From NCBI GenBank assembly GCA_002309855.1, contig DBYD01000031.1, forward strand, positions 60,723 through 124,722: a stretch of 64,000 bases of DNA. The letters are read 5' to 3'. The notes under the pieces were generated by a model. It ran no database searches. It was given only the letters and a program-made list of their open reading frames with translations, and was not told the DNA's origin. The stretch is from Bacteroidales bacterium UBA1195. GTDB lineage: Bacteria > Bacteroidota > Bacteroidia > Bacteroidales > WCHB1-69. Position numbers and translations under genes: made by a program. Shown here piece after piece: positions 2,167 through 13,348 of the stretch (within the stretch, counting starts at the first letter, position 1; each line of letters begins with the position of its first letter).

Positions 2167-2324
2167 AATGCTGCCTTGCGCGATTACCTTCGCAACTTGC
2201 GGCAGGCAAAGGCGACCGGCTGGCGGTCGGAGACGATAGCGGGGGAGGTTAGTTTATAACAATCGTCCAGTAGATGGATTTGCTACCCAAAAGAAAAAGA
2301 CAACTACCCCAAGGCCGTTAATTA

Positions 2325-2531
2325 ATGGTAAAAAATCAAAGTAATATATCAGACAGATTTATGCAGAAGGCGAACTGGACAGGGGACGAACTATCCTTAC
2401 TCAATGGCAAACGCCGTCCTTGCGCCTATACTCGGGAGGAAATGGCGGAAAGTCTGCGCGAAGCAGAAGCGGATTACAAGGCAGGAAGGTATGTTTCCCA
2501 TGGAGACCTCTTTAAAGAATATGGTCTATGA
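2325..2531 (+). CDS. Small hypothetical protein (68 aa)
   Basis: ATG-initiated ORF ending 6 nt before the next ORF. No family recognised. Its position next to a RhuM fragment suggests remnants of an older accessory module. Confidence 0.35.
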   Translation: MVKNQSNISDRFMQKANWTGDELSLLNGKRRPCAYTREEMAESLREAEADYKAGRYVSHGDLFKEYGL

Positions 2532-2537
2532 GATAAG

Positions 2538-2750
2538 ATGGCCCGTGACGGCAATGTGTGGATGAATCAGAAACAAATGGCAGAACTTTTTGCCACCTCA
2601 AAGCAAAATATTGGCCAACATGTAGATAATATTTTGAGAGAAAATGAATTAACTTTAGATTCAGTTGTAAAGTATTTCTTTATAACTGCTGCCGATGGAA
2701 AGAACTATGAAGTAACTTTTTATTCTTTGGACATGGTGTTGGCTTTGTAA
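2538..2750 (+). pseudogene. Fragment of a RhuM-family (virulence protein RhuM-like) gene
   Basis: VWMNQKQMAELFATSKQNIGQHVDNILRENEL...ITAADGKNYEVTFYSLDMV matches the N-terminal HTH region of RhuM proteins of about 330 aa. The ORF stops after 70 aa, where the conserved ISVGYRV segment would follow. Confidence 0.6.
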
Positions 2751-2824
2751 TGGCTTGGAAAACATTTGTATAATAATCTTAGAACGGTGCAGATGATAAA
2801 ATGATGTTTTAGGAGATACGTAAC

Positions 2825-2849
2825 ATTGTGCAGCCAGTGGCTACACAAT
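2825..2849. promoter_or_regulatory. Near-perfect 11-bp inverted repeat (possible operator) upstream of the WYL gene
   Basis: ATTGTGCAGCC-AGT-GGCTACACAAT has 10 of 11 arm positions complementary. It lies 75 nt upstream of ATG 2924. Confidence 0.3.
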
Positions 2850-2923
2850 TGGATATGATACTTTCGGTTCAATGATTAACGATTAGACAAATATTTTATA
2901 AACAACAATAAATTAACCATATT

Positions 2924-3985
2924 ATGCCATTAAACAAAGACAAGATATTACGATATAGTGTGTTGGATAAATGCTTCCAGGACACAGCAAATTATTATAA
3001 CATGAACAGACTGCATCAAGCCGTTAATAGGGAGGTGATGCGGGTCTATGACAAAACTGTCAGCATACGTACCATCCAGGAGGATGTGAAAATATTGCAG
3101 TTTTCTCCGTATAATGTTGTTTTTGATGATGATTTGCGTGAACAAAGATATTACCGGTATGCCGATCCGGATTTCAAGCTTAATATCGTACAATCTTTGT
3201 CAAAAAGTGAGCAGTCCGCTATCCGTGACACAATTAAACTTCTTCGTCCGAAAGTGGGTGATTTTGAGAAAGCCACCCCTTTACATTATTATATGTATTT
3301 ATGTCTGCAGAATATTGCCATCGGCAATACATTGACTTTTGATTTTCCGAGTGTGGAGTTTGAAAACAACGGGGAGTTGGCAGGCATGAATAATTTTGAA
3401 GAGTTGGCCAAATGTGTGATGAACAAACAGCCAATAATAATCACCTATTGTCCTTTTTGGACTGAAGAGAAACTTGTTTTCAAGGTTCATCCGTATCTTT
3501 TGAAGCAGTACAACGGAAGATGGTATTTGATTTCGCATCCTGAAGGGGTTGATTACCAGATAGCCACCCATCCGATAGACAGGATTAGAGATGTGAAGCT
3601 ATGGAAAAAGGCGTTCATACCGCCTTCCATGGACATGCGCGAGTATTTCAATTACACCACCGGTGTGACGATTGATGATTCACCGGTTGAACGTATTGTG
3701 CTAAAGATAAGCAATTCACGTTATAAATACGTTGAGACAAAACCTTTTGGCGAGGACCAGAAGGAGGTTAGACACGATGAGAAATACAATGTGATCGATG
3801 AGGAATACCATATAATAAAGTTCAAAATGCGCATAAACAAGGAATTTGTCTCTTTGCTGCTATCCTTCGGCGATGATTTGGAAGTATTGGAGCCTCAAAG
3901 TCTTAGGGATAAGATGGCTGAAAAAATCATAGCGATGGGGAAAAAATATTCCGTCGCGCAGAAAGACTGCACGGAGGGGGTGTAA
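2924..3985 (+). CDS. WYL-domain transcriptional regulator (wHTH-WYL-WCX type)
   Basis: N-terminal DeoR/HTH_11-like segment (KTVSIRTIQEDVKILQ) and a central WYL motif (KQYNGRWYLISHPEG). The 353-aa size is typical. Its last codons run into promoter cassette A. Confidence 0.8.
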   Translation: MPLNKDKILRYSVLDKCFQDTANYYNMNRLHQAVNREVMRVYDKTVSIRTIQEDVKILQFSPYNVVFDDDLREQRYYRYADPDFKLNIVQSLSKSEQSAIRDTIKLLRPKVGDFEKATPLHYYMYLCLQNIAIGNTLTFDFPSVEFENNGELAGMNNFEELAKCVMNKQPIIITYCPFWTEEKLVFKVHPYLLKQYNGRWYLISHPEGVDYQIATHPIDRIRDVKLWKKAFIPPSMDMREYFNYTTGVTIDDSPVERIVLKISNSRYKYVETKPFGEDQKEVRHDEKYNVIDEEYHIIKFKMRINKEFVSLLLSFGDDLEVLEPQSLRDKMAEKIIAMGKKYSVAQKDCTEGV

Positions 3986-4004
3986 TTTTGCAGCCAGAAA
4001 AAAC
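3951..4004 (+). promoter_or_regulatory. Island promoter/hairpin cassette, copy A
   Basis: CGCGCAGAAAGACTGCAC...GTGTAATTTTGCAGCCAGAAAAAAC contains a GCAG/CTGC mini-hairpin and a TAATTTTG -7 box at 3983-3990. It lies 24 nt before ATG 4014 and is homologous to copies B, C and D. Confidence 0.55.
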
Positions 4005-4013
4005 AATTGAGTT

Positions 4014-4211
4014 ATGGAAGACAATTACGAAGATTATTGCGGCAATGATTACAATGATTATCTCGACCGGTGTGTGGACGAAGATTATTATGAGGAGGAA
4101 CATTATGAGACCTTTTCCGGATCCTATGCGCAGGAATACGAGGGTCTGAGTGACGAATACATTTGGGATGCGTTCGGCGGGGATCCGGATGCGTATTGGA
4201 ATATTGATTGA
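4014..4211 (+). CDS. Extremely acidic, tyrosine-rich small protein (65 aa)
   Basis: By direct count it has 22 Asp/Glu, 11 Tyr, 1 Arg and no Lys. The C-terminal 38 aa (EEHYETFSGSYAQEYEGLSDEYIWDAFGG.DAYWNID) are duplicated at the end of the WG-repeat protein (9294-9863). Confidence 0.5.
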   Translation: MEDNYEDYCGNDYNDYLDRCVDEDYYEEEHYETFSGSYAQEYEGLSDEYIWDAFGGDPDAYWNID

Positions 4212-4218
4212 ATTTTTT

Positions 4219-4275
4219 TCCGCCGCGCAGAAAGGCTGCATGGAAAAGGTGTACTTTTGCAAATTGAAAAACGAG
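4219..4275 (+). promoter_or_regulatory. Island promoter/hairpin cassette, copy B (drives the retron transcript)
   Basis: CGCCGCGCAGAAAGGCTGCATGGAAAAGGTGTACTTTTGCAAATTGAAAAAC has a TACTTTTG -7 box at 4252-4259. No ORF follows until the RT, so the transcript starts with about 300 nt of non-coding RNA. Confidence 0.5.
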
Positions 4276-4355
4276 AGGAGGAACGGATAAATAATAAATG
4301 TAATTATAGCAAGATTAACTGTAAGTTAAAACGTTTTAATGAAATAGTTCTTTGA

Positions 4356-4549
4356 AAAGGTGTCAAGATAAACTGAATTTGAATTCGCCATCTTGTGATC
4401 GGATGGTAATGTGGACAATGTCTCTTGGTTATTGTTGAGCGAATCGTTCTAATCGACCGATGGCTGAAATAACTGAAATAACAAGAAGACTCCGGTGCTT
4501 GCTTAGTAGTATCATATCTGAAGAAACGAGGGATAATCTTGACACCTTT
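4356..4549 (+). ncRNA. Candidate retron msr-msd non-coding RNA
   Basis: A perfect 14-bp long-range inverted repeat closes the region: AAAGGTGTCAAGAT (4356-4369) and ATCTTGACACCTTT (4536-4549). It ends 27 nt before the RT start. Internal stems include CCATC/GATGG at ~4387-4405 and CTTGGTTATT...AATAACAAG, plus a tandem TGAAATAAC x2. Exact ends and the branching G are not determinable by eye. Confidence 0.55.
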
Positions 4550-4575
4550 AAGAAGAATAAAATAGAGCAAAGCAA

Positions 4576-5676
4576 GTGGAGGAATTAAAGACAACAGAAG
4601 TTAAGACGGAGTTGTTGAAGGAACTCAATGAGATAAATAAAGCGTTATATGGTGAAAAGAGTTTCCTTTTTACCATGAAACAGCTAAACTATCATGCATA
4701 CTCCAAGAACAATCCACATCGATACGTCCAATTTCAAATCCCCAAAAAGAAACAGAGGGAATTCCGTACAATTACGGCTCCATGTCGCGGGCTGAAATAT
4801 ATTCAGCGATGTCTTAATGCCATGTTGTTGGATAAATTCACCCCACATCCGTCTGCCAAAGGTTTTGTGCCCGGAAAGTCTATTGTAGATAATGCCAAGG
4901 TGCATCTGGGACAGAATTACATTTATAATATAGATTTGAAAGACTTTTTTCCGAGTATAAAGGCCGCAAGGATTTTTGCCCGTTTACAGTTGCATCCATT
5001 TTCATTTGACAGGGAGACTTCCAGCTTGATTACCGATCTCTGTTGCCATGAAGGTGTATTGCCGCAGGGCGCTCCGACTTCGCCCACCATTACCAACATT
5101 ATTTGCGAACGTTTGGACTGGCGTTTGTCAAAACTGGCACAACGCTATAATATGAGGTATTCCCGATATGCTGACGACATCACATTCAGCAGTATGGGAA
5201 ACCTGTTTCATGAAGATGGTGATTTTGTTAAGGAATTGCACCGTTTTATTGAAATGGAAGGCTTTACTATTAATACTGAAAAGACACGGTTGAATAGCAA
5301 ATACCAAAGACAGGAGGTCACAGGCCTGATAATAAATGAAAAGCCAAATGTGACACAGAAATATGTGAAGCAAATCCGAACCATGCTTAACAATTGGGAA
5401 AAGAGTGGTTATGAATATGCGCAAAGTAAGTTCCTGGAACATTATCATCCCACAAAAAAAACGAAGGGTGAACCTCATATAGAGATTATCATCAGTGGTA
5501 AGTTGGATTACTTGAAAATGGTAAAGGGGGAAAAGGACAGAACTTACTTAAAGCTGAAAAATCGGTATGATCAGCTTTTAGGTTCCATTGTGACAAACAT
5601 ACTTGATGTATGGGAGAAAGATGGAATAGAAGAAGCTATTGAATTATACGAAAAGACAATTCATCGCAACAAATAA
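4576..5676 (+). CDS. Retron-type reverse transcriptase
   Basis: RT motifs are present: SIVDNAKVH (NAxxH), NIDLKDFFPSI, LPQGAPTSPTITN and YSRYADDITFS (YADD at 5167-5178). The retron-specific RQEVTGLIIN (VTG) lies at 5317-5325. The ORF is 366 aa and starts at GTG 4576; the first ATG is codon 34. There is no maturase or endonuclease extension. Confidence 0.9.
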   Translation: MEELKTTEVKTELLKELNEINKALYGEKSFLFTMKQLNYHAYSKNNPHRYVQFQIPKKKQREFRTITAPCRGLKYIQRCLNAMLLDKFTPHPSAKGFVPGKSIVDNAKVHLGQNYIYNIDLKDFFPSIKAARIFARLQLHPFSFDRETSSLITDLCCHEGVLPQGAPTSPTITNIICERLDWRLSKLAQRYNMRYSRYADDITFSSMGNLFHEDGDFVKELHRFIEMEGFTINTEKTRLNSKYQRQEVTGLIINEKPNVTQKYVKQIRTMLNNWEKSGYEYAQSKFLEHYHPTKKTKGEPHIEIIISGKLDYLKMVKGEKDRTYLKLKNRYDQLLGSIVTNILDVWEKDGIEEAIELYEKTIHRNK

Positions 5677-5680
5677 TAAT

Positions 5681-6796
5681 ATGAAATTCTTGGAAAGCAA
5701 AAATTTATCTTTATCTAAAGACACTATTCCTCCCGAAAAATTAAATAGATTTGTTAGTTATTTAATAGGTAATCGCTCTTTAGCCAGTAAGGATCGAGAG
5801 AGAATTGTGGAATTGTTGCTAAAGGATAGAGATAAGGAATATGTGACAAAAGAACAATTGCAAGAACTTTTAAAGATAGGTGGTGATAGAAAAATAGTAG
5901 AGGAAGGAAAGAAAAAAACTGAATATCCTGAACCCAAACAAACATACGAATTTCTCTCTTTCTTTTCTCAAAATGACGGTGGGCTAAAAAATTTGACACA
6001 TGATTTCAATTATGGCTATATAGATTACGATGTTTTTATGGCCCAGTGTAGGAAGGAGTTTGAGGAAGGGAAAAGAAAATATCCAAAGGTCCCGTCTAGA
6101 TTATTGGGAAGAATTGAAGCTTTTGCCTTTAGAGAAGCTCCGGAATGGTATATTCAAAAATGGTTGCAAAAAGAAAGGACTATAATTAGACATGGCTGGT
6201 CTGAACCGGGTTTTGTAGAATGGTATAAGACTAACAAGCTTCATCCATCCAAAGACGCTTTTTACAATAAAGAGATGATAATACCCTTCAAGGAGTCAAT
6301 ACAGGTTAGGGCGGATACGGGCAATTTGATTTCTCTCCTAAAATCTCTTGTAAAGAAAGTGTTTGGTGAAACCCCGAGTTGTAATGTCACTATTTCTGAA
6401 AAAGTTAAAGATGCACAATTTTATACTGATGTTGATAGCTTGGGTCAGGCATTATATCAGATTTTTTCCACTATTAAAGAATACTCTGAAAAGAATTTCT
6501 GCGATGAAGTGGAAATTGACTATTTTACAGAAGGAGAGTATAAAGTGCTAACAGTAACTCACATTGACTCTAAACCAACCAAGAGGGCAGACGACAAGGA
6601 TTATTCTGGAGGAAATACTGATGCCATAAAAAAACAACTCAAGGGATTATGCAACTATGAGATATGTGCGGTCTTTCGAGATGGTCCTTTCAGAAAAATA
6701 ATTCTTTCAGACAATTACGCTGATTTCAAAAAAGGACTTATTCCAATTGATGCCAACTGTATAAAAGGATATACTCATAAAATGTTATTTTATTAA
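5681..6796 (+). CDS. Retron-associated protein 1 (371 aa, unknown family)
   Basis: ATG lies 4 nt after the RT stop; the track start at 5639 is a TTG inside the RT gene. The N-half is helical. The C-terminal ~130 aa (VDSLGQALYQIFSTIKEYS...KVLTVTHIDS...GGNTDAIKKQLKGLCNYEI) loosely recalls a degenerate GHKL/HATPase_c sandwich, but the catalytic N and G boxes are not intact. No Walker A motif. Confidence 0.6.
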   Translation: MKFLESKNLSLSKDTIPPEKLNRFVSYLIGNRSLASKDRERIVELLLKDRDKEYVTKEQLQELLKIGGDRKIVEEGKKKTEYPEPKQTYEFLSFFSQNDGGLKNLTHDFNYGYIDYDVFMAQCRKEFEEGKRKYPKVPSRLLGRIEAFAFREAPEWYIQKWLQKERTIIRHGWSEPGFVEWYKTNKLHPSKDAFYNKEMIIPFKESIQVRADTGNLISLLKSLVKKVFGETPSCNVTISEKVKDAQFYTDVDSLGQALYQIFSTIKEYSEKNFCDEVEIDYFTEGEYKVLTVTHIDSKPTKRADDKDYSGGNTDAIKKQLKGLCNYEICAVFRDGPFRKIILSDNYADFKKGLIPIDANCIKGYTHKMLFY

Positions 6797-6814
6797 TCAA
6801 AGAATATTAAAGTT

Positions 6815-7447
6815 ATGATTTATATACTAGATGATTCGGTAACGGAACAGCGGAAAAAAGAGATTCAATATCTTCAAAATACCCCATATTCTGAAGTGTG
6901 TGTGCTTATTGAAAAGCCAACTAAAAAGATTAATAGGGAAATATTGGCCACATTTTCCGATGATCAAAATTGCTTATTATGCATACATCGCTCCTTAAAG
7001 TATTTTAATGATTTTGGTTCTGAATTAGCCGAATCTGAAGCCATTAGAAACAATATGATCGAGCAGGTTAAGCAAATGAATATCTCTTGTATGGTTTTTG
7101 GTCGTGATATGAGTAGAAACAGAGAAAAGTTGTTTATCGACAAGGATGTGTTTTATAGGAATCTAAAGCTATTCATTGACACAATGATTGTTGGAAATAT
7201 GGAGATAGCAATTCTTTATGATGGTGCCAAGTATATGTATGCAGAACGCACAAGGCTATTGAACGAAATTATCAATGTTATTAATTTAGAATGGTCCACA
7301 TATGATGAAGAAAATAAAACTTTGTTGAATTTGATGCAACACTATTTCATGGGGGAAGATCCTCGGAAAATTATTGAAACATGGAAAAGCAAAAGCCTTT
7401 CTAAGAAAGAAATAAGACAATTTATAAACGATAAATATAAACTATGA
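6815..7447 (+). CDS. Retron-associated protein 2 (210 aa, pseudo-receiver/flavodoxin-like N-terminus)
   Basis: It starts MIYILDD (beta1-DD), followed by CLLCIHRSL and ISCMVFGRD strand-like segments and a helical C-half. No acceptor Asp is evident. It begins 18 nt after protein 1, and its stop overlaps the next ATG as ATGA. Confidence 0.55.
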   Translation: MIYILDDSVTEQRKKEIQYLQNTPYSEVCVLIEKPTKKINREILATFSDDQNCLLCIHRSLKYFNDFGSELAESEAIRNNMIEQVKQMNISCMVFGRDMSRNREKLFIDKDVFYRNLKLFIDTMIVGNMEIAILYDGAKYMYAERTRLLNEIINVINLEWSTYDEENKTLLNLMQHYFMGEDPRKIIETWKSKSLSKKEIRQFINDKYKL

Positions 7448-9192
7448 GAAGCACATTTATAATATATGATGATGGTTCTAAAGAACAAGCCGAAAAATTT
7501 GGACAACAATTATCAATTGAAAGAATCTCATATCAAGCACATGAAAATGAAATGGGATACCACGATTGGTTAACGAGAGAATTCAAGTCTAAAGATATCC
7601 AGAGAATACTGATACCCTTATCTCTCCCTTCATTGGAAGCAAATACCGAAGGTTTGCTTCTTGGATTGCATATTAGATTAAATTTTGAGCTGCCAATCGA
7701 AAAAAGAAGTATTCCAATTGTGTTCATCACCAATTTAAGTATTGATAATATTCTTACAAAATCGACTTTTGACAGCGATAGTAATCCTCAGAATCTATTG
7801 TTTAGCGAAGGAATCTATATCTCTTCAACCGATATAGATGAAATAAAAGAGAAATTGGAAACATCTAAGTCTGTAAAAGATTATAACTTGTTTTTGCGGC
7901 AACTTAATATTCGAAGAAAAGCAGCTGTTGGTGGACATGATATTGCAAATGCATGGGGATGTTATAAATTGGCTCGTGTAGTGGTTGGTGTTAGTGAAGC
8001 AGAATCTTTTTATTCAAATGAAGCCATTGCAAACCATCTCAAACAATTGTATGCAAAATATTTGATATGTGTTAACGAATCGTTCAAAGATTCAAAGGAG
8101 TCTTATGTTGATTTGGATCCAATTAGTTGTAAGGATAAAAAAGTGCTATTTATTGATGATAAATCTGATGAAGGATGGGGGCTTTTGATGCAAAAGATTT
8201 TCAAGTCCGCTGGAAATGGTTTTGTTTGTGTCGATTCGACAAAATATAAGACTGCCGGAAGTTTTGATTATGATGGCTTTATTTCGGAATGTAAATCTTA
8301 TATTGGTCAATATTGGGATTTGATTATTGTTGACATTCGCCTTAATCCCAATAAGGAAGATATTGATTCTGCCAATATTGCTCCTACGGAGTTTTCAGGA
8401 TATGAGCTTATTGATGCTTTTTTGAACAATAATAAAGGGTATCAGATATTGGTATCCACCGCATCAAATAAAATATGGAATGTAAATGCTGCCCTTAAAC
8501 GCGGTGCAAAAGGGTATTACATAAAGGAATCACCAGAGTTTAACTATCCTATTTCGGAAACAAAAAGACAGTATGAATTATTTAAGAATAGTGTTCAGTC
8601 CTGTTTCTATAATTCATATTTGCAAAATATTTTCAAGTCTGTAGGAGAAGAGATAAAGCCAAGTTTGCCCAATAATGACTTTGGCGAACTGATTTCTAAA
8701 CAATTAGATATAGCATGTTATTTGATTTCTTTAGCGGAAACTCAAGAGCAATATGCTTTTGCATATGTTTCGTTGTACCAAATAATTGAAATAATTACTA
8801 ATGAATTGATTAATAAAGAACAGATACAGTCCAATTCTGCTTTTAATAAATGGAAACTGTTAGATGGAACTTATATACATGAATTCGAATGGGATTCACA
8901 TAATAAGTCGTATAAGGATTTGGGAGACGCTCAATCTGGTAAAGAACCATTTCCTCAATGGAAAAAAATGGCTGGATTAGTATTGCAAGAATGGGCCATG
9001 CCCAATGGAGACGGGTTTGTTCGCAATCTTAGTTTTTTAATCGAAAAGCGTCATGGATTTATTCATAATGACAAGACTATTTTGGATAAACAAGATAAAA
9101 ATACTGGCAAATATCTGAATCATGATATTTTTGATAAATCCGGCTTTGAATCATTGTTTAAAAGTATAAAAGCAATTTGCTCGTACTTATGA
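7444..9192 (+). CDS. Retron-associated protein 3 (582 aa): pseudo-receiver + CheY-like receiver + C-terminal HEPN-like helical domain
   Basis: Residues 232-362 (nt 8137-8529) keep all receiver hallmarks: VLFIDD, LIIVDIRL (acceptor Asp), ILVSTAS and GAKGYYIKE (Lys). The N-terminus FIIYDD...RILIPLS...IPIVFITN is a second, degenerate copy. The C-terminal helical region contains EKRHGFIH, an Rx4H motif at 9049-9066. Confidence 0.6.
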   Translation: MRSTFIIYDDGSKEQAEKFGQQLSIERISYQAHENEMGYHDWLTREFKSKDIQRILIPLSLPSLEANTEGLLLGLHIRLNFELPIEKRSIPIVFITNLSIDNILTKSTFDSDSNPQNLLFSEGIYISSTDIDEIKEKLETSKSVKDYNLFLRQLNIRRKAAVGGHDIANAWGCYKLARVVVGVSEAESFYSNEAIANHLKQLYAKYLICVNESFKDSKESYVDLDPISCKDKKVLFIDDKSDEGWGLLMQKIFKSAGNGFVCVDSTKYKTAGSFDYDGFISECKSYIGQYWDLIIVDIRLNPNKEDIDSANIAPTEFSGYELIDAFLNNNKGYQILVSTASNKIWNVNAALKRGAKGYYIKESPEFNYPISETKRQYELFKNSVQSCFYNSYLQNIFKSVGEEIKPSLPNNDFGELISKQLDIACYLISLAETQEQYAFAYVSLYQIIEIITNELINKEQIQSNSAFNKWKLLDGTYIHEFEWDSHNKSYKDLGDAQSGKEPFPQWKKMAGLVLQEWAMPNGDGFVRNLSFLIEKRHGFIHNDKTILDKQDKNTGKYLNHDIFDKSGFESLFKSIKAICSYL

Positions 9193-9230
9193 TGCTCGCT
9201 CCATCTCTACAATCGTTTTTCATATTATTC

Positions 9231-9284
9231 CTCTCCGCGCAGAAAGGCTGCACTTGAGTTGTGTACTTTTGCAGCCGGAAAAAC
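9231..9284 (+). promoter_or_regulatory. Island promoter/hairpin cassette, copy C
   Basis: CTCTCCGCGCAGAAAGGCTGCACTTGAGTTGTGTACTTTTGCAGCCGGAAAAAC has its -7 box at 9264-9271, 23 nt before ATG 9294. It is almost identical to copy D. Confidence 0.55.
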
Positions 9285-9293
9285 AAAGGAAAT

Positions 9294-9863
9294 ATGGCAC
9301 AAGAGAACGTTCAAATTGAAAAGATGGAGGAACTGGAAAAGAGGTACAAATCGGTGAAGGTGTATGATAATGTTGCGGTTGTTCAGGATTACAGATGGCT
9401 TTGGGGTGTGGTTTCTTTGGATGGTGCGGAGATTGTTCCTTTTGGCAGGTATGGTTGGATTGACGGTTTTGATTCCGGGTTGGCGCGGGTGCGCGCTAAA
9501 GGACGCAGTTTTGAAGAGCGAAAAAATGCGAAATGGGGCGTGATTAATGTGCAGGGAGAAGAGGTGCTGCCGGTAGAATATGACAATATATGGAACTTTC
9601 TGGGCAAAAACCGCCAATCAACAACTGTGGAAAAGGGCGGTGAAAAGAGTTTTGTGTACTTCTGCGATTTGAATCCTGATTTGGAATACAAACCGTGCAG
9701 ACAAACAAATCATTATTGGCACGAATATGAAGATGATTGGCGCGAGGAGGAGCATTATGAGACGTTTTCCGGATCTTATGCGCAGGAATACGAGGGCTTG
9801 AGCGATGAGTACATTTGGGATGCGTTCGGTGGGGAGGCGGATGCGTATTGGAATATCGATTAG
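9294..9863 (+). CDS. WG-repeat protein with acidic C-terminal tail
   Basis: WG/KWG-type repeats are present (LWGVVSLDGAEIVPFGRY, KWGVINVQGEEVLPVEYD). The acidic tail is shared with ORF 4014-4211. ATG 9294 is preferred because the track start at 9261 lies inside the promoter cassette. Confidence 0.6.
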   Translation: MAQENVQIEKMEELEKRYKSVKVYDNVAVVQDYRWLWGVVSLDGAEIVPFGRYGWIDGFDSGLARVRAKGRSFEERKNAKWGVINVQGEEVLPVEYDNIWNFLGKNRQSTTVEKGGEKSFVYFCDLNPDLEYKPCRQTNHYWHEYEDDWREEEHYETFSGSYAQEYEGLSDEYIWDAFGGEADAYWNID

Positions 9864-9870
9864 TTTTTTT

Positions 9871-9925
9871 TCTCTCCGTGCAGAAAGGCTGCACTTGAGT
9901 TGTGTACTTTTGCAGCCGGAAAAAC
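9871..9925 (+). promoter_or_regulatory. Island promoter/hairpin cassette, copy D
   Basis: TCTCTCCGTGCAGAAAGGCTGCACTTGAGTTGTGTACTTTTGCAGCCGGAAAAAC has its -7 box at 9905-9912, 22 nt before ATG 9934. Confidence 0.55.
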
Positions 9926-9933
9926 GATAAGGC

Positions 9934-10470
9934 ATGATGGAAGTATTTAACGCATTAAAACAACTTAAACTATTGAAAAAGAAAACAAACATGGACGGTT
10001 CCAACTCTGTTGGGAAATTGGTGAAGCGGATTGCGAAGAAAATGACGGCGAAGGGGATCAAATGCGAGAATGGGGAGGTGAATCTGAGGTATTCCTTGAA
10101 CAACCGTGCGTTCAAGGCAAGGTTCTGGCCGTCCAAATCATCCGGATACAGGGCTGTCATAATTGAATTAATCTCTTTGGACATCTGGGAGAAGATAACA
10201 GATGAGGGCAGGTCCTTGTGGGTGAACCAGATCAACAGGAACAACCTTGACATGAAAGTCTTTTCCCTGGACGATTCTGTCGTTTGCCAATACACCACGT
10301 TTATAAAGAAGCCCGCGGATTTTGTGGATGAGGCAAAGCGCGGTTATGATGTCTTTGGGGAGACTATGAATTCCTTCTATGACAAGCTTTCCGAAATGGA
10401 ACAGCAGTACGCTGTCCGGGAGCCGATACGTCCCATCGGTTTTTTGAGGAGCATGGAGTCTGTCGCATAA
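9934..10470 (+). CDS. Hypothetical protein (178 aa)
   Basis: ATG ORF directly behind cassette D. No family recognised. Confidence 0.5.
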   Translation: MMEVFNALKQLKLLKKKTNMDGSNSVGKLVKRIAKKMTAKGIKCENGEVNLRYSLNNRAFKARFWPSKSSGYRAVIIELISLDIWEKITDEGRSLWVNQINRNNLDMKVFSLDDSVVCQYTTFIKKPADFVDEAKRGYDVFGETMNSFYDKLSEMEQQYAVREPIRPIGFLRSMESVA

Positions 10471-10501
10471 TGGCAAAATACACGTTACATCCTACCTTCC
10501 C

Positions 10502-10600
10502 ATGCCTCGCGAACTTACCATTGACATCCACGGCAAATACGTTGAAGATGCCCTTGCGGAGGTGCGGGATGAAAAAAACAACGCCGAAGGCAATTTTTGA
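10502..10600 (+). pseudogene. Orphan 5' end of an Smr-domain gene
   Basis: MPRELTIDIHGKYVEDALAEVR then diverges and stops after 32 aa. Nt 10511-10569 match 11382-11440 (the 5' end of the intact Smr ORF) with 4 mismatches in 59 nt. Confidence 0.6.
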
Positions 10601-10645
10601 ATATTAAATGCGTTCCATTAATATAGATAAAAAATTGAAGACAAT

Positions 10646-11230
10646 ATGTGCAGATTTTCGGAACCAAGCAGGCAGAAATTAGGTAACACCGTGTTGTATA
10701 TCGCACAACACGCCAAGTATCCATACAAGACAGAAATATTGAAGCTGCTGTACTTGATGGAAGAACTGTCTGTCAGGCAGTACAACACACCATTCCTGGG
10801 CATACCTTTTTCGGTATGGAGGCTTGGTCCTGTTTCCGTCGATGTTTTCGAGGAGCTTTCTGACGGTCCTGTCATACTTGGCGACTTCATCACACTCCAG
10901 TTCAACGGACAGGGTGTCCGTGTCACACCTGTCGCAGGCCGCGAATTCAATGATGATGAGTTTTCCGACAACGACATCAGTGTGATGGAGATGGTAATGA
11001 AAAAATATGGAGGCATGGATTCCGAGTCGCTCATTGCTTTGACACACAAGGAAGGCTCGCTATGGTATGAGACAGCTAAGGAACACGGTTTGCTGCAGGA
11101 TTTTGAGCAGAAACGTGCAAACAGCTCGAACATTGTGATAGATATGGCACGAGGTCTCTGTCCCGATGCACGTAACATGTATGAGGAGACATTGGAAATC
11201 CGTGATTTTGCAAATCGTATGCGCAAATAA
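10646..11230 (+). CDS. DUF4065/Panacea (SocA-like) antitoxin-domain protein
   Basis: The pattern KTEILKLLYLMEE...FSVWRLGPVSVDVFEEL...ESLIALTHKEGSLWYE fits the Panacea/DUF4065 domain of PanA-type antitoxins. 194 aa. Confidence 0.65.
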   Translation: MCRFSEPSRQKLGNTVLYIAQHAKYPYKTEILKLLYLMEELSVRQYNTPFLGIPFSVWRLGPVSVDVFEELSDGPVILGDFITLQFNGQGVRVTPVAGREFNDDEFSDNDISVMEMVMKKYGGMDSESLIALTHKEGSLWYETAKEHGLLQDFEQKRANSSNIVIDMARGLCPDARNMYEETLEIRDFANRMRK

Positions 11231-11233
11231 GCC

Positions 11234-11416
11234 ATGTATCAGGAAGGGCAGCTGCTGAAGTTTTCAAATTTTGTGTTCAAAAATGGCAACACTCCAAAGA
11301 CCAAGTATTTACATAAAGTGGCTGTAGTCCACTTTCTGCTTTGTTTTACACCCCCTAATTCTTTCATAGAAAAAAGTGTTGGAACTTACCATCGACATTC
11401 ACGGCAAATACGTTGA
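11234..11416 (+). pseudogene. Possible truncated toxin partner of the Panacea antitoxin
   Basis: ATG lies 3 nt after the antitoxin stop. The first ~26 aa (MYQEGQLLKFSNFVFKNGNTPKTKYL) look like the start of a small beta-barrel toxin. The frame then runs into the Smr junction with implausible sequence. Weak call. Confidence 0.25.
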
Positions 11417-11612
11417 GGACGCCCTTGCGGAGGTGCGGGAATTTGTTCGGCGCGCTCCGAAGGAGGCGGAGAAGATTGTAGTGATACACGGTTACAACCG
11501 CGGCACGGCCTTGCGCGACGCCTTGCGCACAAGGCTGCGTTCGCCCCGCATACGTCTGATCGAACCCTCGTTCTTCAATCAGGGCGAAACCTACATTTGG
11601 CTGAAACGATAG
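11376..11612 (+). CDS. Small Smr-domain protein
   Basis: LTIDIHGKYVEDALAEVREFV...VVIHGYNRGTALRDALR is an Smr (MutS2 C-terminal-like) domain. It has no ATG: the ORF starts at GTG 11376, and the ATG-bearing 5' end sits 870 nt upstream at 10502. Confidence 0.65.
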   Translation: MLELTIDIHGKYVEDALAEVREFVRRAPKEAEKIVVIHGYNRGTALRDALRTRLRSPRIRLIEPSFFNQGETYIWLKR

Positions 11613-11625
11613 ATTTGTAACCCCT

Positions 11626-12387
11626 ATGAAAATTTCTGTTATAACCGTCACCTACCAGTCGGTGGGGACGCTGGAGGAGGCCATGCGGAGCGTGTTGCGG
11701 CAGAGCTGGCCTGATGTGGAGTACATTGTTGTGGACGGCGGTTCCACGGACGGGACCGTGGAGACAATCCGCCGCATGGAGCCGGAATTCAACGGCAGGC
11801 TGCGCTGGATCAGCGAGCCGGACCACGGCATTTACGACGCCATGAACAAAGGCATCCGCATGGCGGCAGGGGAGGTCGTCGGCATTCTGAACAGCGACGA
11901 TTTCTTCGCCGCTCCGGATGTGCTGGAGCGCGTGGCCGCCGCCTTTGCCTCCGATGCCGCATTGGAGGGCGTTTATGGCGATGTGCGCTATGTGGAGCCT
12001 GAAAACACCGCAAGGACGGTGCGGCATTACTCCTCTGCGGGGTTCACCCGCAAAAAGCTGGTCTACGGCCTTATGCCGGCGCATCCCTCGTTCTATGCCC
12101 GCAAAACCTGCTTTGACCGTTTCGGGTTGTACGACACCCGTTACCGCATCTCCGCCGATTACGACATGTTTGTCCGGCTGATATGGGTGGGAGGCATCCG
12201 CACGCGCTATATGCCATTCGATTTTGTGACAATGCGGAACGGAGGTGCCTCATCATCCGGATTTTCCGCCAGGTGGCAGATAATGCGCGAACACCTTCGG
12301 AGCGCACGGGAGCATGGGATGCCTAGCAGCTTTTTCCTGCAAAGCCTGCGTTATTTCGGAAAAATTGCCGACCTTTTGAAAAAATAG
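11626..12387 (+). CDS. Glycosyltransferase family 2
   Basis: ISVITVTYQS...YIVVDGGSTDGT...GILNSDD is the GT-A/GT2 signature including DxD. 253 aa. Confidence 0.85.
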   Translation: MKISVITVTYQSVGTLEEAMRSVLRQSWPDVEYIVVDGGSTDGTVETIRRMEPEFNGRLRWISEPDHGIYDAMNKGIRMAAGEVVGILNSDDFFAAPDVLERVAAAFASDAALEGVYGDVRYVEPENTARTVRHYSSAGFTRKKLVYGLMPAHPSFYARKTCFDRFGLYDTRYRISADYDMFVRLIWVGGIRTRYMPFDFVTMRNGGASSSGFSARWQIMREHLRSAREHGMPSSFFLQSLRYFGKIADLLKK

Positions 12388-12391
12388 AGCC

Positions 12392-13348
12392 ATGATTGAA
12401 CTTTTTGTATTTTTGTTTCTGCTGTCGGTGGAACTCGGCTATTACCGCCTTGCCAAAAGAAAAAATATCCTCGACATGCCCAACGAGCGCAGTTCCCACC
12501 ATGAGGGGACGGTGCGAGGCGGCGGCATCGTCTTCTACGCCGCATGTCTGGTGTTTTTCTTAAGCCATCACTTCATGTGGCCGTGGTTTATGATCGGAAT
12601 GACAATGATTGCCGGAATCAGCATACTTGATGACATCCGCTCCGTCAAGCCCAATATCCGGCTGCTTGTGCAGGCCGCCGGTGTGTTCCTGGTGCTGTTC
12701 CAGTTCAGCGTGTTCAACCTGGTTGGATGGAAATCCTTCATCGCGGTCTTCTCCGCCGTCTGCATACTGAACGTCTACAATTTCATGGACGGCATCAACG
12801 GCATGACCGGACTCTACACCCTTGTAACCTTGCTGACGCTTTCGTTTGTCAACATGTTTGTGGTTGAGTTTATTCCGCAGGACATCATCACCTATGTGCT
12901 GCTGGCCGACATTGTGTTCCTTGGCTTCAACTTCCGTCGGCACGCCCTCTGCTTCGCCGGCGATGTGGGGGCGGTGGGGCTCGGTGTCATCATTGTATAT
13001 CTGTTCGGACGGCTGCTGCAGTATTCAGGTGCAGAAATCAGCTACATGACCTTCCTGGTGGTCTACGGGACGGACGCGGGCTTCTCCGTCATCCGCCGCC
13101 TATGGCTTAAACAGAACATTTTCCATCCGCACAGGGTCTTCATTTTCCATCTGCTGGCCAACGAGTGCAAGATTCCGCAATTGCTTGTTGCGACAATCTA
13201 TGCCACACTGCAACTGGTGATTAATATCGGTTATCTGATGTTTCCCTTTAACAAATACATATACATGGCGGCATGGATAGTGGTGCTGGTTACAGTCCAC
13301 ATTGCCATCTACCGCTATTGCGACAAACACTATACTTTAATCAAATAG
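12392..13348 (+). CDS. Polyprenyl-phosphate sugar-1-phosphate transferase (MraY/WecA family)
   Basis: Polytopic membrane protein with the NVYNFMDGINGMTG motif and DDIRS. 318 aa. Confidence 0.8.
   Translation: MIELFVFLFLLSVELGYYRLAKRKNILDMPNERSSHHEGTVRGGGIVFYAACLVFFLSHHFMWPWFMIGMTMIAGISILDDIRSVKPNIRLLVQAAGVFLVLFQFSVFNLVGWKSFIAVFSAVCILNVYNFMDGINGMTGLYTLVTLLTLSFVNMFVVEFIPQDIITYVLLADIVFLGFNFRRHALCFAGDVGAVGLGVIIVYLFGRLLQYSGAEISYMTFLVVYGTDAGFSVIRRLWLKQNIFHPHRVFIFHLLANECKIPQLLVATIYATLQLVINIGYLMFPFNKYIYMAAWIVVLVTVHIAIYRYCDKHYTLIK

Follow-up and report, generated by a model that had tools for sequence, protein, structure and literature searches.

Type XI retrons were described as fusions of a reverse transcriptase (RT) to a protease with no recognisable non-coding RNA (ncRNA), and type IX retrons provide a precedent for a HEPN RNase effector (Mestre et al. 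2020, PMC7736814). More recently, a purely computational preprint delineated TXI_C2like, a protease-less lineage found only in Bacteroidota, in which the RT C-terminus is variable, a WYL protein is encoded within two genes of the RT and an a1/a2-flanked ncRNA with several stem-loops lies 38-388 bp upstream (Toro, bioRxiv May 2026, 10.64898/2026.05.14.725207). Here we analyse a locus of Bacteroidales bacterium UBA1195 within a 64,000-nucleotide (nt) stretch of contig DBYD01000031.1, referred to as the window, whose numbering is used throughout; the features of the locus lie on its forward strand. The RT and ncRNA of this locus match TXI_C2like in each feature compared, namely the NAxxH and VTG motifs, relatives in Bacteroidota, the lack of a protease, a WYL neighbour and an a1/a2-flanked multi-stem ncRNA upstream of the RT; the match is one of features, not of placement in a tree. 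The preprint text contains no kinases, receivers or RT-kinase fusions, whereas the window has a kinase module beside the RT; 'iREC;HisKin-conflict' appears in the preprint as a neighbour annotation in a supplementary table only.

Judging from sequence comparison and predicted structure, we give a probability of roughly 0.7 to the reading that the locus is a protease-less, type XI-like Bacteroidota retron of the TXI_C2like kind, arranged as WYL regulator, small open reading frame (ORF), promoter/operator, ncRNA, RT, kinase, 210-amino-acid (aa) protein and iREC/REC/HEPN protein. To the known lineage it would add the anatomy of the RNA, a candidate branching G, a kinase-receiver-HEPN effector with RT fusions, and an effector-specific RT tail.

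A retron-type RT without a fused effector domain

The RT gene (4576-5676) encodes a type XI-like protein of 366 aa with no fused effector domain. Its GTG start is backed by the conserved N-termini of homologs, which have ATG at the same position. A preliminary description of this DNA had recognised the retron motif set NAxxH/QGAPTSP/YADD/VTG in the protein, and all four motifs were located (NAKVH at 4891-4905, residue 106; QGAPTSP at 5065-5085; YADD at 5167-5178; VTG at 5317-5325, residue 248). The same description held that maturase and endonuclease domains are lacking, and this was borne out: RVT_1 was the sole Pfam domain, no maturase or endonuclease domain was found by Pfam, and the NCBIfam group II intron RT/maturase model gave 61.6 bits against a cut-off of 300.

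All 25 PADLOC matches listed for the RT were to retron RT models, headed by RT-Protease_XI (370 bits), RT-TIR_XII (354 bits) and RT-Toprim_I-C (313 bits), with each of these three alignments limited to the RT portion, which in types XI and XII means about positions 16-326 of profiles of ~500 positions. Three retron models of NCBIfam scored 304, 278 and 240 bits, compared with 62 for group II intron RTs, 40 for Drt3a and 33 for Drt2, although the two for which cut-offs were compared stayed below them (304 bits against 600 for the TIR-retron model, 278 against 450 for retron_Ec67_fus). Because the retron profiles far outscore those of other RT classes, the RT is placed outside the Abi, UG and DRT groups. 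The earlier proposal hinged on the RT scoring within the retron classes, and it does so, with 370 bits in PADLOC and 240-304 in NCBIfam against at most 62. By profiles and motifs, the window RT is therefore of retron type.

The best-matching profiles, of types XI (RT-trypsin-like protease) and XII (RT-TIR), reach 370 and 354 bits over the RT region. Unlike these types, the 366-aa window RT has no fused protease or TIR domain, the predicted effectors are separate genes, and an ncRNA is present where type XI was reported to have none that is recognisable (PMC7736814). By profile score, the nearest experimentally studied relative is Retron Ec67/Eco2 (type I-C, RT-Toprim; 313 bits in PADLOC, 278 in NCBIfam), whose RT falls in the same broad clade and which has the same layout of ncRNA followed by RT. 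Unlike it, the window RT has no Toprim domain and lies below the family cut-off of 450, and its ncRNA has no Rfam match.

A protein search recovered a 28-member RT family sharing 64-91% identity with the RT of the window when full alignments are compared, or 69-98% by best local alignment. The loci of 12 family RTs were fetched through exact-protein look-ups; fetched loci are given L-numbers below. Genome and metagenome scans with the RT alignment added at least 166 further loci, with RTs 33-57% identical to that of the window, and no relative above 57% was among the matches listed in these scans. The relatives come from metagenome-assembled genomes of Bacteroidales and other Bacteroidota. Counts of ncRNAs and of kinase gene order across the wide clade refer to 175 RT sequences.

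A conserved structured RNA immediately upstream of the RT

The predicted ncRNA occupies 4347-4558, 18-229 nt upstream of the codon at which the RT starts. It is closed by a stem whose 5' arm, GTTCTTTGAAAAGGTGTCAAGAT (4347-4369), pairs with a 3' arm, ATCTTGACACCTTTAAGAAGAAT (4536-4558), at -28.9 kcal/mol, the 3' arm ending 17 nt before the start codon. The preliminary description had pointed to a perfect 14-bp inverted repeat as an a1/a2-like pair. This repeat is exact, AAAGGTGTCAAGAT (4356-4369) being complementary to 4536-4549, and forms the core of the 23-nt closing stem; across an internal mismatch of 2 nt, the repeat reaches 22-23 nt (4347/4348-4369 with 4536-4557/4558). Retron usage gives the name a2 to the 5' repeat, which adjoins the branching G, and a1 to the 3' repeat, so the pairing stands as first described and the labels, which made the 5' arm a1, have to be exchanged. 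A chance check for the 14-mer with at most two mismatches in the 64-kb window gave 0.43 occurrences expected and 4 found, this pair being the only exact one. Folding of the region 4260-4580 had been suggested as a check, and the minimum free energy (MFE) structure of 4262-4580 is closed by this stem, with z = -2.1 against shuffled sequences. The segment between the promoter and the RT start had also been described as free of ORFs. No forward-strand ORF of at least 50 aa lies within 4262-4576, where only unconserved, mechanically called ORFs of 28-46 aa and one such minus-strand ORF occur.

Within the closing stem, the first element is the UUU of an inner helix followed by an invariant G (4378-4381; TTTGA is invariant in the 12-sequence alignment described below). 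Next come stem-loop 1 (SL1; GCCATC...GATGGT, 4387-4407), formed by CCATC (4388-4392) and GATGG (4402-4406), and a long variable hairpin, the candidate msd stem-loop (4413-4495). This hairpin includes the repeat 4420-4433/4477-4490, in which CTTGGTTATT (4424-4433) pairs with AATAACAAG (4477-4485), and two tandem copies of CTGAAATAA (4464-4472 and 4473-4481). These local stems and the duplication agree with those first described. A conserved block, CATATCTGAAGAAACGA (4513-4529), precedes the 3' arm; it is nearly invariant in the close family, holds A4524-A4526 and would contain the template start at ~4523, if it serves as template. A scan of 3500-7500 against Rfam at E <= 10 gave only chance-level microRNA and long non-coding RNA matches and no retron msr family.

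Twelve distinct ncRNA sequences from the window and its relatives were compared. In all of them, ~200 nt upstream of the RT align with window positions 4347-4558, and the MFE structure has the same long-range closing stem (12 of 12), with arm duplexes of -25 to -38 kcal/mol. The outer part of the stem is conserved and the inner part covaries, such that the variants are complementary within each locus: CAAGAT/ATCTTG in the window, TACGG/CCGTA in L084, TACAGAC/GTCTGTA in L167, CGTGCATGG/CCATGCCG in L171 and GAGTTGTCACG/CGTGACAACTC in L174. In the 12-sequence alignment (A7), 94.1% of cells of the outer stem and SL1 are paired, compared with 45-55% in a control in which the 3' partner was slid by 1-3 columns. 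Changes on both sides of a pair were seen in 7 pairs, against 1.7 in shuffled alignments, and none of 500 shuffles reached the observed value. Within the close family, a 5' arm pairs with its own 3' arm at -31.6 kcal/mol and with the arms of other loci at -22.3 kcal/mol. In SL1, where 98.6% of cells are paired, one compensatory change from C-G to U-A was found (L173), and the remaining changes are wobble-compatible.

The central region forms a strong hairpin in each locus, with sequences that are unrelated to one another. Between the window (4413-4510) and L081 (~5825-5935), the candidate msd region is wholly different, while the flanking RNA is nearly identical and the RTs are 98% identical. 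The corresponding region of L081 contains three CTGTACAAC-like repeats.

To cover the wide clade, the regions upstream of the 175 RTs were searched for G[GTA]TCTTTGA together with a complementary partner. Sixty-eight distinct ncRNAs across Bacteroidota were recovered, each with the 5' motif and a locus-specific complementary arm; they span 177-315 nt and end at a median of 50 nt before the RT. Their own-arm duplexes average -28.4 kcal/mol, against -16.0 for non-cognate arms. The distant members were located in this way, through the short 5' motif and arm complementarity, since nhmmer profiles of the 5' and 3' ncRNA blocks matched in the close RT family only. Across the wide set, the variable arms are flanked by (U)UUGA on the 5' side and by ...AUAAAGAAA[AU]GA on the 3' side, and this ...ATAAAGAAA[AT]GA block is the counterpart of the window block at 4513-4529. 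In 52 of 65 loci, in-register pairing joins the 4-6 nt ahead of the UUGA guanosine to the nucleotides after the AAAG-type motif, with the classes UUUU/AAAA (22 loci), AUUU/AAAU (12), UAUU/AAUA (9) and UAUU/AGUA (4). By these pairing classes, the inner helix beside the invariant G covaries.

Retrons place the branching G at the inner end of the extended a2/a1 helix. G4381 is the candidate branch point, because it is an invariant G at the inner end of a covarying extended a2/a1 helix. The preliminary description had noted that no branching G follows directly after the stem. There is indeed no invariant G at that position, yet G4381 ends the inner helix and offers a plausible answer to the missing G.

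By these comparisons, the leader is a conserved RNA with a covarying closing stem, SL1 and an inner helix. A repeat that is neither conserved nor covarying in homologous loci had been named in advance as an outcome that would refute the retron assignment; the repeat has 7 both-sided pairs against 1.7 and recurs in 68 loci. The msr-msd layout proposed directly 5' of the RT is the best reading of this RNA, backed by the class of the RT and by the covarying repeat.

A predicted kinase-receiver-HEPN module downstream of the RT

The preliminary description had delimited the system to 4262-5676. This interval correctly takes in the RT and the ncRNA, but it stops at the RT stop codon and omits the effector genes (5681-9192), which follow the RT in a tight operon, and the WYL regulator. 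The first of the downstream genes (5681-6796) starts 4 nt after the RT stop codon and encodes a HisKin-conflict histidine-kinase-like protein of 371 aa (PF22561, 5e-58) with a conserved His107 in LKNLTH, a residue found in 16 kinases. It is predicted to have kinase activity. No homolog of it was found in the plasmid collection.

The second gene (6815-7447) encodes a 210-aa protein with 39 homologs. Its AlphaFold2 model (predicted local distance difference test, pLDDT, 87.9) combines a flavodoxin-like alpha/beta domain at the N-terminus with a C-terminal half that is helical. Profile comparison with the iREC/REC protein showed no similarity. In other kinase-type loci, a gene of 207-244 aa occupies the same position, and we regard the product as an obligate partner that may modulate the relay.

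The third gene (7444-9192), whose start shares 4 nt with the end of the second, encodes a 582-aa protein with the predicted order iREC, linker, active REC and HEPN-like domain, which we regard as a predicted phospho-regulated RNase effector. Pfam assigned iREC at 4.3e-12 and, weakly, Response_reg. Across 34 homologs, there is no variation at receiver positions DD238-239, D297, T339 and K361 or at R536-x4-H541 towards the C-terminus, and 5 of the 34 homologs match HEPN families of Pfam. The AlphaFold2 model (pLDDT 88) has tandem-receiver PleD structures as its top PDB matches, and the predicted HEPN-like domain contains a beta insert. With acceptor His, acidic pocket, acceptor Asp, Thr and Lys all present, the residues of kinase and receiver would fit a two-component phosphorelay. 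Unlike in type IX retrons, a receiver here has the HEPN-like domain as its output, and control is predicted to lie with a kinase encoded beside, or fused to, the RT.

The window kinase clearly belongs to the HisKin-conflict family (PF22561), as does the first domain of the 582-aa protein to the iREC family (PF22563). These families reportedly stem from the Aravind group's work on histidine-kinase conflict systems (Burroughs and Aravind, 2020). A literature search on retrons with kinases or iREC proteins, in which the 2020 study of Burroughs and Aravind was not included, returned nothing relevant beyond the Toro preprint.

Linkage of the module to the RT clade

According to tblastn, ~34 of the 175 sequences have the order RT, kinase, gene of ~210-240 aa and iREC protein, and they represent many Bacteroidota families. 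In 20 loci, a kinase homolog is encoded directly downstream of the RT. Furthermore, RVT_1 and HisKin-conflict domains occur in a single ORF in the six loci checked with Pfam (L090, L012, L023, L011, L007 and L029). Two cultured strains, Chryseobacterium gregarium DSM 19109 (L011) and Mucilaginibacter antarcticus KCTC 52232 (L023), carry such an RT-kinase fusion.

The C-terminal tail of the window RT holds the motif WEKDGIEEAI (5611-5640), a predicted kinase-docking peptide on the basis of its association with the kinase module. The pattern W[ED]..G[IVL][DENQ].A[IMLV], shared by the ends of stand-alone RTs that a kinase follows, was present in 13 of 34 loci of the kinase/iREC type, as against 1 of the 109 remaining loci (Fisher p = 1.2e-8). 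A near-identical RT, P0001 (L081-L083; 98% identical), parallels the window RT up to about residue 330, beyond which it diverges, and has both a different tail and a different downstream gene. As tail and gene differ together, the tail and the effector cassette appear to have been exchanged as a unit, with a breakpoint near nt 5560. Gene order, fusion and the kinase-specific RT tail tie the kinase and iREC genes to this clade of RTs.

Several further observations concern the RT tails and the genes beside them. The region of divergence, which covers the last ~35 RT residues, runs over ~5560-5676 in the window and ~6985-7128 in L081. The gene that follows P0001 encodes a 317-aa protein of a family with the motif LYQCRNLNHRG. 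Genes for the related proteins of ~290-327 aa lie at L081:7168-8121, L084:7133-8116, L085:7247-8125, L167:4117-5082, L168:7193-8068 and L170:7230-8210. These proteins have no Pfam match and might be equivalent to 'AC006', an uncharacterised cluster in the Toro preprint; the genes after them often encode very large proteins of SACS-like or helicase type. We considered whether they are diverged kinases and rejected this, given an identity of 15-23%, no HisKin-conflict match and a motif of their own. In three kinase-type loci, the RTs are longer, at 561-595 aa (L097:4733-6430, L104:5956-7641 and L110:2609-4396), with an unassigned insert of ~120 aa separating the RT core from the WE..GI tail motif, which an acidic extension follows. 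The one of these three that was scanned, L097, has no Pfam match beyond RVT_1. L168 contains a second retron-like RT of 378 aa followed by a DnaB_C protein (9643-11702), 2.5 kb downstream of the first retron and with a WYL gene in between; it looks like the TXI_noncan_h lineage of the preprint beside a TXI_C2like retron.

Promoters, WYL regulator and genomic surroundings

A WYL-WCX protein, the predicted transcriptional regulator of the locus, is encoded at 2924-3985 (WYL 4.6e-10 and WCX 1.2e-10 in Pfam; WYL 2e-29 in PADLOC), two genes upstream of the RT. By tblastn, WYL homologs were found in 68 of the first 170 RT loci fetched, and most close relatives have the WYL gene just upstream on the opposite strand.

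Two promoter/operator cassettes form a 54-nt direct repeat with 80% identity. Cassette A (3949-4002) carries the palindrome GCGCA-N7-TGCAC (3956-3972) and a Bacteroidetes-type -7 box, ahead of a 65-aa ORF; cassette B (4218-4271) carries the palindrome GCGCA-N7-TGCAT (4225-4241) and the -7 box TACTTTTG (4252-4259). Cassette B aligns with the promoter region of the relatives and is likely the promoter of the ncRNA-RT operon. Similar palindromes, GTGCA-N7-TGCAC, precede the ncRNA in L004, L010, L023, L105 and L127, and the GCGCA-N7-TGCA[CT] palindromes are candidate WYL operators. The acidic 65-aa ORF between the cassettes (4014-4211; C-terminus ...GSYAQEYEGLSDEYIWDAFGGDPDAYWNID) has no Pfam match. 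It is 91% identical in L081-L083, and another 16 loci share its last 32 aa at 56-72% identity, in most cases no more than ~500 nt upstream of the RT match.

Of the 68 loci with a recovered ncRNA, 47 have a Bacteroidetes -7 box (TAnnTTTG) no more than 40 nt upstream of the 5' arm. In close relatives it stands 4-6 nt before the arm, which suggests that transcription starts close to the arm. A scan for sigma-70 promoters and terminators returned background-level results; the scan does not cover Bacteroidetes promoters.

The locus is part of an islet (~2300-11300) situated between glycosyltransferase genes of a polysaccharide locus. The window also encodes a protein with a Por_Secre_tail sorting domain and contains Bacteroidetes-type -7 boxes. 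A WG-repeat protein and a SocA/Panacea antitoxin-domain protein are encoded in the islet (9261-9863 and 10646-11230; context also at 180-1403 and 11626-13348), and WG-repeat proteins are likewise found beside the RT in L084 and in the neighbour lists of the Toro preprint.

Weighing of the interpretations

Several points weigh against reading the locus as a retron whose effector is the kinase module. Multicopy single-stranded DNA (msDNA) has not been demonstrated for any type XI-like retron, so a branched msDNA is assumed by analogy. No invariant G follows directly after the main stem, and the candidate G4381 rests on its conservation and on a window inner helix of 3 pairs only (U4378-U4380 with A4524-A4526). 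The arm-proximal -7 box is degenerate in the window and in L081 (TTTTAATG), and ~85 nt (4262-4346) separate cassette B from the arm; with this long leader and the degenerate box, the primary transcript of the window would have a 5' extension that relatives lack. As for the module, the HisKin-conflict protein has no sequence match to any solved structure. The 210-aa protein is without assignment (no Pfam match at E <= 1; best Foldseek PDB match at E = 0.02), and the C-terminal domain of the window 582-aa protein has no Pfam HEPN match at E <= 0.01. Moreover, the closest RT relatives (70-98% identical) have the ~290-327 aa protein downstream instead of the kinase module, which makes the module a swapped-in cassette that could in principle act alone.

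The first set of these points bears on the nature of the RNA. The leader could serve as template or cofactor RNA in making a non-canonical RT product (unbranched, concatemeric or protein-primed, as in some DRT-type systems), or it could be purely a cis-regulatory 5' untranslated region. Along with the want of an msDNA precedent, type XI had no recognisable ncRNA in the survey of Mestre et al. 2020, no Rfam family matches, the priming G is inferred and the window leader before the 5' arm is unusually long. Against this, retron models score ~5-10 times better than the Drt2, Drt3 or group II intron models; the RNA has the hallmarks of a retron, with an end-to-end closing stem, a conserved stem-loop and a hypervariable central hairpin directly 5' of the RT; and relatives have a dedicated promoter at the 5' arm. 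We therefore regard a product other than msDNA, or a purely regulatory leader, as unlikely.

The second set bears on the partnership of RT and module. The RT and ncRNA could form a retron while the kinase, 210-aa and iREC-HEPN genes constitute an independent two-component defence system in the same defence islet. The other genes beside the nearest RTs would fit such a separation, as would the presence of further conflict-type genes in the islet, such as that for the SocA/Panacea protein, and the Pfam families of the module were defined generically from 'conflict contexts'. This is difficult to square with RT and kinase in one ORF in six loci, with a gene order kept in ~34 loci of many Bacteroidota families, and with a kinase-specific RT tail that goes with the module, only 4 nt separating the RT stop from the kinase start. 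We consider mere co-residence in a defence islet quite improbable.

Lastly, a decaying or inactive retron remnant, which the degenerate arm-proximal -7 box, the sequence inserted between promoter and ncRNA and an inner helix weakened by a T-to-C change in the 3' block might suggest, is very improbable given that all ORFs are intact with their catalytic motifs, that other public contigs encode identical WYL, kinase, 210-aa and iREC proteins and a relative of the RT is 98% identical to it, and that the same leader arrangement recurs in the independent L081-L083 contigs and the T-to-C variant in L171 and L172.

Proposed mechanism and implications

Under the preferred reading of a type XI-like retron with a kinase-receiver-HEPN effector, the ncRNA would be transcribed from the cassette B promoter under WYL control, and its ends would fold together. 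The RT would bind this RNA, prime from the 2'-OH of the G that ends the inner helix (candidate G4381) and copy the template leftwards from ~4523 (...CATATCTGAAG) through the variable hairpin, yielding a branched msDNA that stays bound to the RT. The RT-msDNA complex might then hold the kinase through the RT tail WEKDGIEEAI, a contact that would be covalent in lineages with RT-kinase fusions. A phage-induced change to the msDNA or the RT would alter kinase activity (His107), and phosphotransfer to receiver Asp297 would turn on the HEPN RNase and arrest the infected cell. The core of this model, in which RT-msDNA is the sensory input of a histidine-kinase phosphorelay with a receiver-gated HEPN RNase as output and the kinase is recruited by fusion or by an exchangeable RT tail, is tentative, and we would hold it at somewhat less than even odds.

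If the model is correct, the tail would let near-identical RT/ncRNA cores (98%) swap whole effector cassettes by recombination at the tail. The retron effector would in this case operate by signal transduction rather than by direct toxin sequestration, a logic that was not found in the retron literature searched. The presence of the fused form in two cultured strains makes the coupling idea directly testable. The locus also offers a concrete construct on which msDNA synthesis could be tested, in which the arms are delimited, the branching G has a candidate and the start of the template is predicted, and compact RT/ncRNA cores of Bacteroidota could serve for in-vivo DNA production in gut commensals. 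Type XI-like retrons, which abound in gut Bacteroidota and have had no experimental characterisation, were the main retron group for which no template RNA was known. Together with the RT-kinase fusions and the effector-specific RT tail, the kinase-receiver-HEPN module suggests that a retron may be coupled to its effector through phosphorylation, and that retron cores may exchange effectors by a simple rule.

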